Virus genome (UHGV): UHGV-1790783
Reading direction: 5' to 3' (one strand)
DNA length: 30,347 nt
Origin: a virus
The translations under genes and the position numbers were made by a program. The notes beneath the pieces are model-generated. The model had not been told where the DNA came from. It did no database searches and saw only the letters and a program-made list of their open reading frames with translations. Each line of letters begins with the position of its first letter. The first letter of the stretch is position 1. Positions 3,570 through 9,064 of the stretch are shown here, in pieces.

Positions 3570-4250
3570 ATGGATGTGAAAATTACGATTCTGCAGGTGG
3601 AAGTCGCGAACCTGCGTCCGAATCCCTGGAATACCAACTCCGTTGGGGCGCAAAACTTCGAAAAACTGAAAGGCTCTATCGAAAAATTGGGCTTTTTTAA
3701 GCCAATTCTGGCGCGGGAGTTGGACGGGGGCATTTTTGAGATCCTCGGTGGTGAACACCGCTGGCGTGCCGCGATGGAGCAGGGCATTTCAACGGTTCCC
3801 GTCATCTCCGTGGGCAAAATTAACGACCTGGTGGCCAAACAGATGTCCCTCGTCGACAACGAGCGCTACGGCGAAGACGATCAGGTCGCTTTGCAGCGCT
3901 TAATCGAAGAAATCCAGTCTGAAATCGACTACCGGTTGTCCGATATCGCCCCGTATGACGACGAAATGGCGGCAACACTCGCCAAAGCGTCCGTTATCGA
4001 TCTTGAAGCGCTGGAAGCGCTCTCCCGTGGCGATGACGAGCCGGTCGATGAGGACAAACGCGAGAAAACCGAGCGAGTCGGCGCTGAACACCAGACGATG
4101 CGCTTCAAGGTGACGTTTGATGCGTCAGATCGGGTCGCCGACACCATCAAAACCATCATCAAAGAGCAGGGAATCAATACCGGTAACGAAATGGAGAACG
4201 CCGGGGAAGCCCTGGTGTGGCTGGTCGACTACTACAAGGAGCGTATGTAA
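3570..4250 (+). CDS. ParB/sulfiredoxin-like nuclease-domain protein (paralogue 1)
   Basis: ORF track 226 aa. ParB N-terminal motif ILGGEHRWRAA preceded by LRPNPWN. Stop overlaps the next start (TAATG). Confidence 0.8.
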   Translation: MDVKITILQVEVANLRPNPWNTNSVGAQNFEKLKGSIEKLGFFKPILARELDGGIFEILGGEHRWRAAMEQGISTVPVISVGKINDLVAKQMSLVDNERYGEDDQVALQRLIEEIQSEIDYRLSDIAPYDDEMAATLAKASVIDLEALEALSRGDDEPVDEDKREKTERVGAEHQTMRFKVTFDASDRVADTIKTIIKEQGINTGNEMENAGEALVWLVDYYKERM

Positions 4251-4918
4251 TGACCAAAAACTTTGAAATCGTCTATCGAAACCCGGCAGAACTCATCCCG
4301 TATGAGATGAACGCCAAAAAACATGACGAACAGCAGATCCGCGATCTGGCGGCCGCCATCAAAAAGCGCGGTTTTGACCAGCCGATCACGGTCGACAAGC
4401 ACGACGTCATCATTACTGGCCACGGTCGTCGCGAGGCGGCTCTTCTGGCTGGTCTGGAGCGTGTGCCGGTCATTGTTCGCGACGATCTGAGCGAAGAAGA
4501 AGTGAAGGCTAAGCGTCTGGAAGACAACCGCCTGGCCAGTATTGACTACGACGCCATCAAATTGCAGCAGGAACTGGAATCCCTGGTGCTGGGCGACGTC
4601 GAGGTCTTCGGTTTTGAAGAGCGCGAGCTGAACGTGCTTGTCGGCAGCATGACCGAAGAGATGGAAACCGGCTCTCTGGTGCTCGATCTGGGCGAAGAGA
4701 CGGAGCGCCAGAAGGAAGAGCACACCGAGATCAGTCGCGAAGTGGCCTCTGAAGAAGTCCGCGTCATCGACGTATTGGGCTTTAAAACGCTCCCTGCTGG
4801 CTCTGCCATTGTGGTTGGGGATTTGCTTGCCCACATGGAAGAAATCACGGGAGAGAGCGGGGTAGACGCTTTCGTGGCGTATGCGGAGAAAGTTTCTTCT
4901 GGGGAGCTGGCCGCATGA
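4250..4918 (+). CDS. ParB/sulfiredoxin-like nuclease-domain protein (paralogue 2) with acidic C-terminal half
   Basis: In-frame ATG at 4250 inside track ORF 4217..4918. ParB-type motif IITGHGRREAA. Stop overlaps the next gene's ATG (ATGA). Confidence 0.8.
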   Translation: MTKNFEIVYRNPAELIPYEMNAKKHDEQQIRDLAAAIKKRGFDQPITVDKHDVIITGHGRREAALLAGLERVPVIVRDDLSEEEVKAKRLEDNRLASIDYDAIKLQQELESLVLGDVEVFGFEERELNVLVGSMTEEMETGSLVLDLGEETERQKEEHTEISREVASEEVRVIDVLGFKTLPAGSAIVVGDLLAHMEEITGESGVDAFVAYAEKVSSGELAA

Positions 4919-5553
4919 GCAAATACACCATCAACGTATCGTTTCAGACCCGCGTGAACAAAACCACGCGCACGCTGGAGATTGCCGAATCGTTCGGTCT
5001 TGGCCTGGACGAAAAAGAGTGGACGCTTTACGACAATCTGGAGCTGGAAGTGAAGCAGGGCGATGTGGTGTACATCACCGGCCAATCCGGTTCCGGTAAA
5101 TCCGTTGTGCTGCGCGAGCTGCAACGCCAGATGAAGGATGAAGGGCTTTCTGTAGCCTCCATCGATGACTTTGCCTTCGACAATGAGGTTAACGTCATTG
5201 ACCAGCTGGGCAAAACCACCAGCGAAGCGCTGGGGCTGCTGTCTATGGCCGGATTGAATGACGCCTATCTCTTTGTGCGTAAGCCATCCGAGATGTCTGA
5301 CGGCCAGAAATACCGTCTCAAGATCGCCAAGCTGATCGAGTCCGGCGCGAAAGTCTGGGCTGCCGACGAATTTGGCGCTGTTCTCGACCGTGTAACCGCC
5401 CAGGTTGTGGCGTCGAACCTCCAGCGTGCCGCCCGTAAGGTTGGTGCGACGGTAATGGTGGCGACGACCCACGAAGACCTGAAGAACGCGCTGCGCCCGG
5501 ATATGCAGATCACCAAGCACTACAAAGAACGCGTGAAGGTGGAATATGCCTGA
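4915..5553 (+). CDS. Stand-alone ABC-type ATPase (single nucleotide-binding domain)
   Basis: ORF track 212 aa. Walker A GQSGSGKS, Q-loop-like IDQLG, ABC signature-like SDGQKYR, Walker B VWAADEFG, H-loop-like ATTHED. No transmembrane partner in the operon. Confidence 0.75.
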   Translation: MSKYTINVSFQTRVNKTTRTLEIAESFGLGLDEKEWTLYDNLELEVKQGDVVYITGQSGSGKSVVLRELQRQMKDEGLSVASIDDFAFDNEVNVIDQLGKTTSEALGLLSMAGLNDAYLFVRKPSEMSDGQKYRLKIAKLIESGAKVWAADEFGAVLDRVTAQVVASNLQRAARKVGATVMVATTHEDLKNALRPDMQITKHYKERVKVEYA

Positions 5554-5800
5554 TTTGAAGATCGTAGAGCTGAAGCCATCGAAAGAGACTGACAACAACA
5601 ACGTTGAAGTCATCCGCCTGCTGGAAGAAGCACTCCAGTACGCAAGAGAAGGCAAAAGTCAGAGCCTGGCTCTGCTGATGATCGACAACGACGGCAATGT
5701 TATGGATTGCTGGCATAACGGTGGGCGTCCATACGTCATGGTTGGGGCGATGGAATCGCTTCGCCTGGACTTCATCAATGCCAATATCGAGCGTAGGTGA
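5546..5800 (+). CDS. Small hypothetical protein (84 aa)
   Basis: ORF track 84 aa, ATG overlaps the ATPase stop by 8 nt; no recognisable motif. Supported mainly by operon context. Confidence 0.45.
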   Translation: MPDLKIVELKPSKETDNNNVEVIRLLEEALQYAREGKSQSLALLMIDNDGNVMDCWHNGGRPYVMVGAMESLRLDFINANIERR

Positions 5801-5805
5801 TCGAC

Positions 5806-6696
5806 ATGACAGGCATCATCATCAAACGCTACCGCCCGGAAGAGTTCCCGCGTCATCTGGACTTTCTGGAGCGTATGACCGTTACCAAAGGCACGGTTGA
5901 AGACTGGCACGCGCTGAAGTCGCTGCACTACAAGACGGATGGTAAGCCGTTCGCGCCAACGTATTATCGCTGCGAACTGGACGACCGGCTGGTGGGCGTC
6001 GTGGTTATGGCTTACCCGAAACTGCTGCTGGCGCCTCGCCATCGCATGTTTCCTAAGCTGAAGCCAACCACCAATACCACCGTGGCCAACCAGTATTGGG
6101 GCCGGTACGTGAACAACAACTTTGCCGTGATCAGCCGTTCCGTTGTTGACACTCAGTACCGCGGTGTCGGCGTCTCCTATCGAATGATTAACCTGGTTAG
6201 CAGGATGCACGACCGGCCAATCATCGAGATCCAGTCGTCGATGAGCAAATACAACCCGTTCGCCATGAAAGCAGGGTTCCAGTTCATCCGTCCGGAGCGT
6301 CCGAAGAGCTATGAGAGTGCGTTGCGCGTCTTCCAGCGTCATTTCCGTTCTGACCCTGGCGACAACGAAGCGATCGTCAAAGAGCTGTTCGCCATGAGTG
6401 AGTCTCGCCGTCGTCGTGCGCTGCGTGATCTGGTCGCTGACTACCACAAGAACAGTTCCCTGGCCAAAGCCGGGCGTAATCGTGGCACGACGATTCAGGA
6501 CATTGCCGACAGCCTGGTGGACGAGGCCAGCACCGTGAAGCTGCTCAAGGACATTCACAACCTGAGCTTCACGTCTCCGCTGTATGGCGTGTACCGAAAC
6601 CCGGACTTTGGTCGTCAGCTGCCGGACACGCTGCCACTGCTGGCATTCGACAAACAGCCTTTGAATAAACCTCTTGAAATTGCATTACCGGCATAA
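5806..6696 (+). CDS. GNAT-like acyltransferase-fold protein with ~130-aa C-terminal extension
   Basis: ATG at 5806 (AGGTGA SD 8 nt upstream) within track ORF 5797..6696. Segment FAVISRSVVDTQYRGVGVSYRMINLV matches GNAT motif A (R/Q-x-x-G-x-G/A after a hydrophobic strand). Motif-level inference only. Confidence 0.55.
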   Translation: MTGIIIKRYRPEEFPRHLDFLERMTVTKGTVEDWHALKSLHYKTDGKPFAPTYYRCELDDRLVGVVVMAYPKLLLAPRHRMFPKLKPTTNTTVANQYWGRYVNNNFAVISRSVVDTQYRGVGVSYRMINLVSRMHDRPIIEIQSSMSKYNPFAMKAGFQFIRPERPKSYESALRVFQRHFRSDPGDNEAIVKELFAMSESRRRRALRDLVADYHKNSSLAKAGRNRGTTIQDIADSLVDEASTVKLLKDIHNLSFTSPLYGVYRNPDFGRQLPDTLPLLAFDKQPLNKPLEIALPA

Positions 6697-6705
6697 GGAT
6701 TTGCC

Positions 6706-6972
6706 ATGACGTTGACCGACAAACAAAAAGACATCATCAAAACCATCAATTTAGGCCATGAGCGTGGGCATCTGCTCGATCTGGACGAGCTGCTTGAAGT
6801 GCTGCCGTACAAAACGACCAAACAGAGTATGCAGTTCTCTATCCGCGCACTGGTGAAAAAGGGGCTGGTGGAGAAAGGAATGTGCCGCCAGCGCGGTGAT
6901 TCCGGCTACCACCGTCGCACGCTGGGACTGACCACGTTAGGTCGTGCCAGAGCCAAATTACTGGTGATGTAA
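6706..6972 (+). CDS. Small basic protein, putative winged-helix DNA-binding regulator
   Basis: ORF track 88 aa, SD TAAGGA upstream. Lys/Arg-rich with a helix-turn-helix-like segment (TTKQSMQFSIRALVKKGLVEK). Low-specificity inference. Confidence 0.45.
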   Translation: MTLTDKQKDIIKTINLGHERGHLLDLDELLEVLPYKTTKQSMQFSIRALVKKGLVEKGMCRQRGDSGYHRRTLGLTTLGRARAKLLVM

Positions 6973-6997
6973 GTCGGTCTGGGAGCCAGTTTGAGAG

Positions 6998-7048
6998 CCT
7001 GCTTCCGTATATATAAATAGTGACTTATTAAATATATACGGAGGCAGG
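6998..7048. repeat. Large imperfect inverted repeat (17-bp arms, 17-nt AT-rich loop) between the accessory operon and terS
   Basis: Seen in sequence: CCTGCTTCCGTATATAT ... ATATATACGGAGGCAGG, one mismatch that is a G-U pair in RNA. No adjacent T-tract, so not a classic terminator. Confidence 0.7.
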
Positions 7049-7163
7049 TTCTGAATACTCCCCAGCCCGGTTTTAAACACCCAGAAAACAAATTGGTTAG
7101 GCACTGAATTAAACAAGTTGTTTAGGAGCGCAAGGATGCGCTCTGAGTGTTTTAGAGGGATCT

Positions 7164-7805
7164 ATGACTGTAGAAAAAGACGAGAGCAAAACTCGCCTGA
7201 CACCAGCTGAGTGGGCAGAAGCCGAAGCGAAGTGGACTTCCGGCGAATACACACTCTCCAGGCTGGAGGAAGAGTACGGCATTCGTCGTGAAACGCTCTC
7301 CAGACATTTCAAAAAGCGTGGATTAGAGAAAGGCGCGGACTCCGTTGGGAAGATGGTGCGCGAGTCGCTCAAATCCGACGCAGAGCTGCGTGCGAAGGCG
7401 CGTGCAGAGAAAATCGAAGAGCGCCGGACTCGTTACGACGATTGGGCGTTCGCACTCGGTCGTATGGTGATGCATGAGGTGGCCACAGCCAAGAAGGACG
7501 GCAGGCCACTGGCAGCCATCGAAGATGACCTGAAGAGTCTCCAGCGTGCCAGCGGCACACTCGCTAAGTGCTTCGAAATATCGTCGAAAGCGCTCGGTAT
7601 GGATCGCGTGGAGAACGAGGACGACGAAATCCCGAACCTGGTATTTGGCGAACTTACGCCTTCCCAGGTGGCGCAGCTGCGTAAGGAAGATGATGAGCCG
7701 GATCTGATTGATGACGATCTGCTTGAGTCACTCGAAGAGGAAGCACTGAGCGAAGCTGAGGGCGATTCTGAAGCGTCTGGTGATGAAAGTGATGGGAGCG
7801 TCTGA
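7164..7805 (+). CDS. terS: Terminase small subunit (putative)
   Basis: ORF track 213 aa, immediately upstream of and coupled to the large terminase; HTH-like N-terminus, highly acidic C-terminus; SD AGAGGGA. Call by position and composition. Confidence 0.65.
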   Translation: MTVEKDESKTRLTPAEWAEAEAKWTSGEYTLSRLEEEYGIRRETLSRHFKKRGLEKGADSVGKMVRESLKSDAELRAKARAEKIEERRTRYDDWAFALGRMVMHEVATAKKDGRPLAAIEDDLKSLQRASGTLAKCFEISSKALGMDRVENEDDEIPNLVFGELTPSQVAQLRKEDDEPDLIDDDLLESLEEEALSEAEGDSEASGDESDGSV

Positions 7806-7807
7806 CT

Positions 7808-9064
7808 ATGGCCATCCCGTCGTCTCTGAGTCTCGTACAGCTGCATTCTGGGCAGATGCAAGTCTTCCAGTCGCCACATCGTTTCAAAGTGGTGTGTGCG
7901 GGTCGACGCTGGGGTAAATCCCGGTTGTCGATCTCCACCATCATCCGCGCGGCAGCCAAAGAGAAGAAGCAACGTGTCTGGTACGTCGCACCGACTTACC
8001 AGATGGCTCGCCAGATCTTGTGGGATGACCTGCAGGAAGTTCTGCCGCGCAAATGGGTTCGTAAGAAAAACGACACCACGATGACCATCGTGCTGAAGAA
8101 CGGCTCTGAAATCGCGCTGAAAGGTGCGGATAAGCCCGATACGCTTCGTGGTGTGGCACTGCACTTTGTGGTGCTCGATGAATTTCAGGATATGAAGCCT
8201 GACACCTGGTACAAGGTACTGCGTCCGACACTGTCCTCCACCCGTGGCGGTGCGCTGATCATCGGTACGCCAAAAGGCTTCTCCGAGTTCCACAAGCTGT
8301 GGACTATCGGTCAGAACAAAGATTTGCAACGCAAGGGGCAGTGGAAGAGCTGGCAGTTCGTTACGGCCGATTCTCCGTTCGTACCGAGCGCGGAAATCGA
8401 AGCAGCGAAGAACGATATGGACCCTAAATCGTTCGCACAGGAATACCTGGCCAGCTTCGAAAACATGTCCGGACGCGTTTACTACCCGTTCGACCGCAAT
8501 GTGCATGTGAAGCCACTCCAGTTCAATCCGAAACTGCCGATCTGGGTTGGTCAGGACTTCAACATCGACCCTATGTCATCGGTCATCCTGCAGCCGCAGC
8601 CAAATGGCGAGTTGTGGGCCGTGGACGAGGTTGTGCTGTTCTCTTCCAACACGGCTGAAGTGTGTGATGAGCTGGAGCGCCGTTTCTGGCGCTGGAAGTC
8701 TCAGGTCACTATCTTCCCTGACCCGGCAGGTGCGTATCGCCAGCACGCACGCGGCGAATCGGACGTCGATATCTTCAAGGAAAAAGGTTTCCTTCGAGTC
8801 GATTATCCGAAGAAGCACCCGCCGATCGCAGACCGTGTTAACGCAGTGAACCGCATGTTGATGAGTGCCTCGGGCGAAACCCGGTTGTACATCGATCCGA
8901 AGTGCAAACACCTCATCGACTCGCTGGAGAAGGTGATCTACAAGCCAGGCTCACGCGATATGGATAAGACTGGCGGCATCGAACACAGTGCGGATGCGTT
9001 GGGTTATCCGGTTCATCGTAGGTATCCGGTTAAAAATCGTGTTATTCTTGGTGGATCTAGATAG
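7808..9064 (+). CDS. terL: Terminase large subunit (ATPase + nuclease)
   Basis: ORF track 418 aa. Walker A VVCAGRRWGKS, Walker B HFVVLDEF, C-terminal acidic nuclease-type segment VGQDFNIDP. Confidence 0.9.
   Translation: MAIPSSLSLVQLHSGQMQVFQSPHRFKVVCAGRRWGKSRLSISTIIRAAAKEKKQRVWYVAPTYQMARQILWDDLQEVLPRKWVRKKNDTTMTIVLKNGSEIALKGADKPDTLRGVALHFVVLDEFQDMKPDTWYKVLRPTLSSTRGGALIIGTPKGFSEFHKLWTIGQNKDLQRKGQWKSWQFVTADSPFVPSAEIEAAKNDMDPKSFAQEYLASFENMSGRVYYPFDRNVHVKPLQFNPKLPIWVGQDFNIDPMSSVILQPQPNGELWAVDEVVLFSSNTAEVCDELERRFWRWKSQVTIFPDPAGAYRQHARGESDVDIFKEKGFLRVDYPKKHPPIADRVNAVNRMLMSASGETRLYIDPKCKHLIDSLEKVIYKPGSRDMDKTGGIEHSADALGYPVHRRYPVKNRVILGGSR

Follow-up and report, generated by a model that had tools for sequence, protein, structure and literature searches.

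A palindrome ahead of the terminase genes of an SSU5-like phage-plasmid is one of three related cassettes and may mark a transcript boundary

Immediately upstream of the terminase genes terS and terL, the stretch of viral DNA analysed here (UHGV virus genome UHGV-1790783; 30,347 nucleotides (nt), hereafter the window) carries a large palindrome. This raises the question as to what such a structure does in front of the packaging genes, and the original prediction named three possibilities: an element of RNA processing or stability, an operator for a DNA-binding protein encoded nearby, or part of a packaging recognition region. The window region is 98.6% identical to Salmonella phage SSU5; some 790 plasmids from Salmonella (with pHCM2 of Salmonella Typhi among them), Escherichia coli, Klebsiella, Enterobacter, Citrobacter and Yersinia pestis match it at 78-98% identity, and over the palindrome region the best plasmid match also reaches 98.6%. 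Because of these identities we place the window in the SSU5 group; by sequence it is a phage-plasmid of the SSU5/pHCM2 type. The comparison with its relatives also changes the question posed about the palindrome, since it belongs to a repeat family: judging from the alignments, it is copy A of three paralogous cassettes specific to SSU5/pHCM2-type phage-plasmids. The reading that we favour, and hold tentatively, is that of an RNA hairpin that ends transcription, or insulates against it, at the 5' edge of lytic operons.

A BLAST search with window positions 6900-7250 against the complete pHCM2 finds the palindrome three times, at sites designated A, B and C (Table 1). Loci were sampled in IMG/VR contigs via the proteins flanking each site, independently of the palindrome pattern, and the denominators given in Table 1 are loci with enough sequence. 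The palindrome is present in all family loci sampled at all three sites, in answer to the proviso of the original prediction that it should not be missing from related phages. Among complete E. coli genomes, 260 of 5426 have it, at a median of 6 places, which corresponds to three copies seen on both strands, and 1409 of the 1413 E. coli places lie on plasmids, the other 4 being on one chromosome. This near-exclusive plasmid distribution rules out a chromosomal repeat of the REP, ERIC or MITE-like kind. In the phage collection the palindrome occurs in 12 SSU5-like records only, and Rfam 15 returned only sub-threshold matches to long hairpins (miRNA precursors; best 25 bits vs. a gathering score of 84). 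A protelomerase target (telRL, N15-type) is likewise ruled out, by the odd usual length of 55 base pairs (bp), the presence of three copies and the imperfect centre; no protelomerase is listed in the PLSDB feature table of pHCM2, itself incomplete.

In the window, the palindrome lies as originally described between an open reading frame of 88 amino acids (aa; stop codon at 6972) and terS (ATG at 7164), and the inverted repeat is confirmed: the arms at 6998-7014 (CCTGCTTCCGTATATAT) and 7032-7048 (ATATATACGGAGGCAGG) form 16 Watson-Crick pairs plus one G.T, the sole G.T of the core arms, between T7003 and G7043. The spacer between them (7015-7031) is 17 nt long and AT-rich. A repeat finder extends the arms to 24 nt (6991-7014 and 7032-7055) at 88% complementarity, and the predicted RNA fold has an uninterrupted stem of 21 bp (6994-7014 and 7032-7052). 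In this fold the spacer is no true loop, as it contributes 5 further pairs and leaves a loop of 4 nt, and outer arms (GGTCTGGGAG, 6976-6985; CTCCCCAGCCCGG, 7058-7070) widen the structure to 6974-7070. The arm sequence is found at 2 places only in the 30-kb window, the chance expectation being 0.02 matches at three or fewer mismatches, and the whole intergenic region (6973-7163, 191 nt) has a predicted folding energy of -72.4 kcal/mol (z = -6.2 vs. dinucleotide shuffles). Both imperfect pairs of the window copy are G.U on the sense strand only, and the sense RNA of the core is predicted to be the more stable by 7.7 kcal/mol (-33.1 vs. -25.4 kcal/mol antisense); for the extended form 6974-7070 the values are -50.4 kcal/mol sense and -41.6 kcal/mol antisense.

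Across the family, the palindrome is usually 55 bp long (CCTGCTTCCGTATATAT-AAATACTAAGTGACTTATTAA-ATATATACGGAAGCAGG), nearly continuous and centred on TAAGT-N-ACTTA, with a total length range of 50-57 bp. The window copy is a unique 51-bp variant: a CTAA deletion makes its centre 4 bp shorter than that of all other family members, which read AAATACTAAGTGACTTATTAA, and an A to G change is present in the right arm at 7043. Neither change occurs in any of the 74 IMG/VR A loci, in pHCM2, in SSU5 or in the best plasmid matches, and they may represent either a real variant or a sequencing error in a palindrome that is hard to sequence.

What else the three copies have in common bears directly on function. 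Shared by A, B and C are the outer left arm (G)TCTGGGAG, the core palindrome and the outer right arm CTCCCAGAC(C). The outer left arm begins a few bases past the preceding stop codon, the extended structure as a whole starting 2-4 nt past it, and the TCTGG core of this arm persists in the flank upstream of copy C, which varies in other respects. Directly 3' of the core, the sense strand of copies B and C has a run of T residues (CTTTTT or CTGTTTT at B; TCTTTT or TCTTTTT at C), and these T-runs are retained across lineages with differing surrounding sequence. Copies B and C also have a conserved hexamer like a sigma-70 -10 element, TAnnAT, 32-44 nt before the ATG (TAGAAT or TAAAAT at B; TATGAT or TATCAT at C), as part of a strongly conserved common block CTCCAG(A/T)CGCT-TAnnAT ahead of the start codons (pHCM2, L008 at 36835-37240 and L007 at 31942-32114) that is absent from A, and several CCAGA(A/C) repeats lie between the palindrome and this promoter-like block. 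If TAnnAT is taken as the -10 element, the palindrome spans about -93 to -148. At copy A, a scan found no sigma-70 promoter in or beside the palindrome; TATAAA and TAAATA, seen by eye, are without the -7 T. On the upstream side of copy C, plasmids diverge in sequence beyond about 35-45 nt 5' of the palindrome, while the palindrome and the sequence downstream are conserved; this indicates that the cassette is part of the operon that follows it. The neighbouring gene on the upstream side of C is either co-directional, with its stop codon 7-35 nt before the palindrome, or divergent.

Several known sites were considered in the course of this inspection. The sequence TATAAATA fits the consensus of a T4 late promoter, a candidate that was dropped; we know of no gp55-like factor in SSU5-like phage-plasmids. 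A LexA box was rejected as well: CTGTATAT and ATATACAG are present in the arms of some lineages, but about 37 bp apart rather than 8, and many copies have CCGT. No IHF, CRP or Dam sites were seen by eye.

With this anatomy in mind, each cassette may be described as an element that starts just past the stop codon of the preceding gene, is built around a near-perfect palindrome of about 55 bp and stands some 95-120 nt ahead of the first gene in a long co-directional lytic block. We infer that RNA polymerase enters from upstream, in which case the sense transcript would form a highly stable hairpin, with 21 pairs in unbroken succession in the window and a predicted energy of about -33 kcal/mol (core) or -50 kcal/mol (extended form). 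At B and C, the T-run directly after the hairpin would make an intrinsic terminator that shields the separately promoted downstream lytic operon from read-through, and these two copies look like insulating terminators ahead of their own operon promoters. Copy A, with its degraded T-run TTCTGAAT, would terminate weakly at most, and may chiefly serve as a 3'-end stabiliser of the message of the upstream ParB-ABC operon or as an RNase III-type processing site before the terminase message. With so poor a T-tract, copy A is probably leaky as a terminator or has its role in RNA processing or stability. The window copy has the stem and short loop of an intrinsic terminator (21 + 5 pairs, 4-nt loop) and is without the T-run; by these sequence features the class is a fit for B and C, not for A. 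A perfect RNA duplex of 21 bp is a sufficient substrate for RNase III, and the predicted stem of the window copy reaches the roughly 20 bp or more of double-stranded RNA that this enzyme needs. The originally proposed role in RNA processing or stability is favoured in the wider sense of a transcript-boundary hairpin; what speaks for a role in RNA is the onset 2-4 nt past a stop codon, the sense-strand T-runs at B and C, the sense-only G.U pairs and, in a distant lineage described below, a hairpin followed by T8.

To a certain extent, the pattern of conservation is also that of a paired RNA. In the family alignment, 94% of cells are paired. One covarying pair extends the helix (A-U in 13 sequences, G-C in 11), arm position 9 is seen as C-G, U.G and U-A, and compensated double changes are present at arm positions 6 and 8 of site B. 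Among distinct copies, G.U on the sense strand outnumbers A.C, which would be a wobble on the antisense strand only, by 55 to 16. Greater stability as sense RNA is predicted for 14 of 22 distinct copies at A and for 31 of 37 at C. This strand asymmetry is suggestive at A and C; as it is reversed at B and the copies are not independent, we do not treat it as decisive.

A number of observations weigh against a plain terminator or boundary hairpin. The T-run of copy A is degraded in all three main lineages (TTCTGAAT, CTCTCAAAC and CTTCGTAAG), its tail scoring 0.84-2.26 where the 95th percentile of random sequence is 1.99; B and C have 4-5 T. With a divergent gene upstream of C, a terminator would have no obvious transcript to act on. 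Of the 22 distinct copies of site B, 14 are more stable as antisense RNA, and G.U and A.C pairs are equally frequent there (9 each). Arm positions 1-4, 7 and 10-12 are invariant in 72 distinct copies, with positions 13-14 nearly so, and in the site A alignment 12 of 21 pairs never vary. By our own calculation, the variant at arm position 9 on the left is statistically almost independent of that on the right, which makes true covariation modest. Finally, the K. oxytoca plasmid pCAV1099-111 described below has a repeat, common to its sites B and C, that lies beside its terminator hairpins and not within them, which suggests a separate sequence-specific function. The invariance of the arms exceeds the needs of a plain terminator, and this implies that something reads the sequence. 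Such strict conservation may stem from gene conversion, from recognition by a family-specific factor, or from both. The copies within a genome have lineage-specific changes in common (all three have GTATATTAAATAATAAAT in one lineage, and the 55-mers of A and C do not differ in E. coli plasmids), and this concerted evolution, too, can come from gene conversion between the copies or from a common reader acting in trans.

Distant relatives help to separate what is conserved in the long run from what is specific to the SSU5 lineage. The comparison covered TerS homologues with 50-65% identity from Moellerella, Xenorhabdus and the Klebsiella oxytoca/michiganensis group, and in these relatives the order is kept: two ParB_N genes, the ABC gene, further genes, the 88-aa gene, a gap, terS and terL. 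The gap always has a long inverted repeat with an AT-rich centre, of other sequence and spacing. At site A of K. oxytoca plasmid pCAV1099-111 (L364-L366), only the left arm of the SSU5 palindrome is present, together with a different, imperfect hairpin followed by T8, which by its sequence is a textbook intrinsic terminator; sites B and C of this plasmid have ordinary terminator-like hairpins. A 56-nt AT-rich repeat, CCCCTTAATTAAAAAGATTTTAAAAAGAGCTTTAAATACTATCCAGAGCAAGG, is common to its sites B and C (108521-108576 and 56264-56318), the 3' end of this repeat is homologous to the right arm of the SSU5 palindrome, and at site C two inverted copies flank the ordinary terminator hairpin. The feature that is conserved over long range is hence a hairpin or terminator at the three positions, plus some common sequence specific to each lineage.

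Sequence recognition is at the heart of the best surviving alternative, which we consider possible though rather unlikely: that the arms are an operator or distal site in double-stranded DNA, bound at all three cassettes by a DNA-binding protein of the phage-plasmid (one of the ParB/Spo0J-like proteins, the 88-aa protein or a master repressor) that co-regulates the lytic operons, by silencing them in lysogeny or activating them after induction. It would account for the blocks CCTG (arm positions 1-4), T (7) and GTATA (10-14, the last two nearly), which are invariant in both arms and lie one helical turn apart, while positions 5, 6, 8 and 9 vary freely and largely independently; lineage-specific changes common to the three copies are expected with one reader protein, the element goes together with the operon that follows it and not with the gene that precedes it, and at site B the K. 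oxytoca lineage has conserved one unit, unpaired, next to a distinct terminator. A possible reader is at hand, since the first ParB_N protein aligns with Spo0J residues 23-172, helix-turn-helix included. KorB of RK2, a repressor of the ParB family, acts from dispersed palindromic operators 80-190 bp upstream of promoters. However, the family length range of 50-57 bp, about half a helical turn and including the 4-bp deletion of the window, would be better tolerated by a hairpin than by a phased protein site. At B and C, about 93-148 nt separate the element from the likely start sites downstream of it, which is more than simple occlusion would allow, and neither the sense T-runs at B and C nor the G.U excess at A and C is explained. 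ParB and KorB sites are contiguous palindromes of 13-16 bp, whereas the element has 17-bp arms about 21 bp apart (17-25 bp, variable), even if the replicon encodes two ParB_N proteins, the first of which has the aligned helix-turn-helix region. The 88-aa protein as reader, as originally suggested for the neighbouring putative DNA-binding protein, faces the additional problem that the element is present at three loci and its gene at one only; together with the distance and the variable length, this suits a rigid dimer operator poorly.

A better candidate for a dispersed operator is found in the same genomes. The short palindromic motif AAACAA-N-TTGTTT is present twice between the palindrome and terS (Table 1) and at 10 or more further places in pHCM2 (near 1567, 15297, 31170, 71563, 73002, 75384, 77707, 78011, 83766 and 84762), most of which are intergenic and 10-100 nt ahead of gene starts when compared by eye with the feature tables. 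It is probably the dispersed operator of a global regulator, separate from the large palindrome. Its half-sites look like the halves of chromosomal parS (TGTTTCAC-GTGAAACA) in everted orientation, and the genes for two ParB/Spo0J-like proteins lie immediately upstream.

In a bolder reading, for which the strict sequence conservation and the concerted evolution leave room but which we think unlikely, the three palindromes would form a control hub specific to the family: a factor encoded by the phage-plasmid might read the invariant arms at all three operon borders and switch the lytic operons jointly from lysogeny to lytic growth or back. This factor might be one of the conserved ParB/Spo0J-like proteins with a CTPase fold, acting at a distance in KorB style, or an RNA-binding antiterminator that recognises the hairpin. 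If true, this would be a new control logic of lysis and lysogeny for a plasmid family that is widespread in the clinic: pHCM2 of S. Typhi, the pMT1 relatives of Y. pestis and the SSU5-like plasmids of Klebsiella and E. coli.

It is improbable, in our judgement, that the palindrome is a recombination linker or a selfish or neutral repeat, kept by gene conversion and marking breakpoints of module exchange without a dedicated regulatory role. The concerted evolution within genomes would fit this idea, as would the variable flank that starts beside copy C. Two genomes are of interest here. In the IMG/VR contig IMGVR_UViG_2834043822_000005 (contig 2834043822_5; L195, L292 and L224), which has a mosaic genome, copy A is of Klebsiella type and copies B and C are of Salmonella/pHCM2 type, suggesting that large modules are exchanged between lineages. 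In the F-type plasmid NZ_CP062831 of enterotoxigenic E. coli, a conjugative IncF plasmid with the CFA/III pilus regulator gene cofR, a C-type cassette stands alone between elements of the IS3 and IS2 insertion sequence families (L006, 6002-6054); it holds the palindrome, the promoter-like region that follows and the opening codons of the phrog_2500 gene, and is a captured fragment of an SSU5-like plasmid. A linker or neutral repeat would not explain the 100% retention at three syntenic sites where the flanks have diverged by 20% or more, the invariant arm positions, or the conserved T-runs and distances to the next gene; nor, unlike a mobile or neutral repeat, has the element spread to other sites or chromosomes.

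Very improbable is a role as lytic replication origin or DNA-unwinding element, with inverted initiator boxes flanking about 35 bp of roughly 85% A+T and three origins per genome. Copy C does lie directly upstream of phrog_2500, a DnaB-like helicase and a primase, and at site A the AT-rich centre expands to 55-75 nt in Xenorhabdus and Moellerella. The layout of arms around an AT-rich centre, and the three copies, recall the oriS and oriL palindromes of herpes simplex, in which inverted GC-containing arms surround an AT-rich centre and of which there are three per genome. However, though no test aimed at replication was made, we found no evidence of an initiator protein, no iterons and no DnaA boxes; origins before the terminase genes and after the Dam methylase gene have no obvious rationale, and the sense T-runs and downstream promoters would be left unexplained.

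We give the least credence to the third of the original suggestions, a packaging site (cos or the first terminase cut), in which the terminase would nick copy A symmetrically and leave ends in the AT-rich centre. The position directly upstream of terS and terL is the classic one for cos, and copy A, without a T-run and with another downstream flank, is unlike B and C. Furthermore, the linear GenBank record of SSU5 (NC_018843) ends in ...GTGACTTATTA and begins with AATATATACGG, exactly at the boundary between the spacer and the right arm of copy A; at this junction (AAATACTAAGTGACTTATTA at the end, AATATATACGGAAGCAGG at the start) no base is lost or duplicated. Against this stand the two more near-identical copies per genome, which would also be cut: a cos site is expected as a single functional copy, and there are three in pHCM2, in E. 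coli plasmids and in IMG/VR contigs. Four independent draft contigs end inside B (L314 and L327) or C (L257 and L274), from which it follows that the repeat breaks assemblies, and this can explain the ends of the SSU5 record as well. None of 75 other A loci is at a contig end inside the palindrome, the record of phage Cyrano is opened one base away with a start that copies SSU5, and other SSU5-like phage records are circular or opened elsewhere. The Cyrano (LF82) paper concerns a re-annotated plasmid compared with SSU5 and reports no mapping of ends, and in the literature searched we found no paper that maps the ends of SSU5 or describes a cos site or this element. In addition, TerL belongs to the Terminase_6N/3 type; among solved structures the TerL of Thermus phage P74-26 comes closest, and TerL of the window is about 26% identical to the large terminases of T5-like and Jersey-like phages rather than to those of the lambda-, P2- or HK97-type cos phages. 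The window copy, lastly, has its 4-bp deletion in the very centre. With three near-identical copies, a terminase not known to be of a cos type and record ends that can be an assembly artefact, a packaging recognition region is disfavoured. A practical consequence is that the SSU5 reference is opened inside copy A, and database ends at these repeats are unreliable as virion ends unless backed by end mapping.

Returning to the transcript-boundary hairpin, its surroundings deserve a brief description (Table 1). The operon upstream of the palindrome (3570-6972) encodes two ParB_N proteins, an ABC-type ATPase and proteins of 84, 299 and 88 aa, and all relatives examined, as far as Xenorhabdus and Moellerella (TerS 50-60% identical), have it directly upstream of terS-terL. 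So close a linkage points to a role in packaging or late gene control rather than in plasmid partition; pHCM2 has a separate gene for a ParA-like ATPase elsewhere on the plasmid. Neither terS nor the 88-aa protein yielded a useful match in PDB searches. Ahead of the ribosome-binding site of terS, the small hairpin GAGCGC-AAGGAT-GCGCTC (7126-7143) is as described. The accompanying statement that neither hairpin has a proper T-tract is right for the large palindrome, with its tail TTCTGAAT, and only partly so as regards the small one, which was scored as terminator-like in a simple scan and has a TTTT beginning 6 nt downstream. A compensated change from G-C to A-U (GAGCAC..GTGCTC) is present in 3 family members and G.U variants in several, and the K. 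oxytoca group has a hairpin of other sequence (GGCGTC..GATGCC) at this position. The small hairpin is thus conserved and, from its place just ahead of the ribosome-binding site, is best read as a leader (5' untranslated region) structure of the terS message.

Table 1 Features of the palindrome region in the window, and the three palindrome copies of pHCM2 with the corresponding family sites.
Feature	Position	Strand	Basis or context
88-aa open reading frame, phrog_900, function unknown	6706-6972	+	last gene of the upstream ParB_N-ParB_N-ABC ATPase operon
Extended imperfect palindrome	6974-7070	+	predicted sense-RNA hairpin of ~97 nt with internal loops; outer stem retained in family alignment
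Outer left arm GGTCTGGGAG	6976-6985	+	4 nt past stop codon of the 88-aa open reading frame
Left core arm CCTGCTTCCGTATATAT	6998-7014	+	inverted-repeat search, family conservation
AT-rich centre AAATAGTGACTTATTAA	7015-7031	+	itself partly palindromic; fold
Right core arm ATATATACGGAGGCAGG	7032-7048	+	G7043 is a window-specific A to G change, gives G.U in sense RNA
Outer right arm CTCCCCAGCCCGG	7058-7070	+	followed by TTTTAAAC
AAACAA-N-TTGTTT motif, first copy AAACAAATTGGTT	7086-7098	+	short palindromic motif
AAACAA-N-TTGTTT motif, second copy AAACAAGTTGTTT	7111-7123	+	short palindromic motif
Small hairpin	7126-7143	+	terS leader, 20 nt before ATG, ahead of ribosome-binding site
terS Shine-Dalgarno region AGAGGGA	7154-7160	+	invariant in family alignment
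Putative small terminase / DNA-binding protein, phrog_867, 213 aa	7164-7805	+	first downstream gene; 'terminase small subunit' in phage Cyrano annotation
Large terminase subunit	7808-9064	+	Terminase_6N / Terminase_3; nearest solved relative phage P74-26 TerL
Copy A (site A)	pHCM2 ~62.4 kb		upstream of terS, terminase and virion genes follow; palindrome in 74/74 loci, 94-117 nt from its 3' end to next start codon
Copy B (site B)	pHCM2 ~87.2 kb		between phage Dam methylase gene and a 76-aa open reading frame, then rnhA (RNase H block); palindrome in 72/72 loci, 105-119 nt to next start codon
Copy C (site C)	pHCM2 ~32.1 kb		upstream of phrog_2500, DnaB-like helicase, primase; palindrome in 78/78 loci, 106-122 nt to next start codon

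Phage-plasmids of the SSU5 type are frequently found in S. Typhi, E. coli, Klebsiella, Enterobacter and Yersinia, and the organisation and silencing of their lytic genes are poorly understood. The three cassettes map where the transcription units for packaging and virion genes, DNA metabolism and replication begin, and they provide defined targets for mutagenesis and transcript mapping.

We found no description of this repeat family in the searchable literature, and it is instructive to compare it with systems that are better known. The lambda-type cos sites are also partly symmetric sequences directly upstream of terminase genes, and one database record ends within the palindrome; unlike them, the palindrome is not unique in its genome and the terminase is not of a known cos type. 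The KorB operators (OB) of RK2 and the centromere palindromes of N15 have in common with the cassettes that palindromes are dispersed over a replicon that also encodes ParB-family proteins, but they are short and contiguous, and are not built of long arms held some 21 AT-rich bp apart at variable spacing. Like the RNase III hairpins of T7 (R0.3 and R1.1), the cassettes are several similar, long intergenic hairpins with a predicted 20 bp or more of double strand, enough for E. coli RNase III, and in a T7-like case the residual 3' hairpin would stabilise the upstream message; the T7 sites differ in having a characteristic internal loop and in numbering about ten. The promoter-early stem-loop (PeSL) repeats of T4-type phages, which Arbiol et al. 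are said to have described in 2010, are likewise repeated intergenic modules of stem-loop and promoter within one phage genome, at the edges of variable gene blocks. Copies B and C, with their stem-loop, T-run and conserved TAnnAT as a predicted promoter, might be of this kind, and C borders a variable region; A is without such a promoter. PeSL modules resemble one another closely enough for recombination between them and may drive modular shuffling. The cassettes are unlike them in being only three, in holding fixed syntenic sites before core lytic operons and in their 55-bp palindrome, and we regard the resemblance as a lead. As in insulating Rho-independent terminators, a hairpin comes right after a stop codon, is followed at B and C by a T-run and then by a promoter-like -10 element, and has its place taken in a distant lineage by an unrelated hairpin with T8; the differences are a far longer stem (about 21-27 pairs), a sequence that is kept at three loci and across genera, and the missing T-tract of copy A. 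In kind, the family resembles insulating terminators and the repeated intergenic stem-loops of phages.

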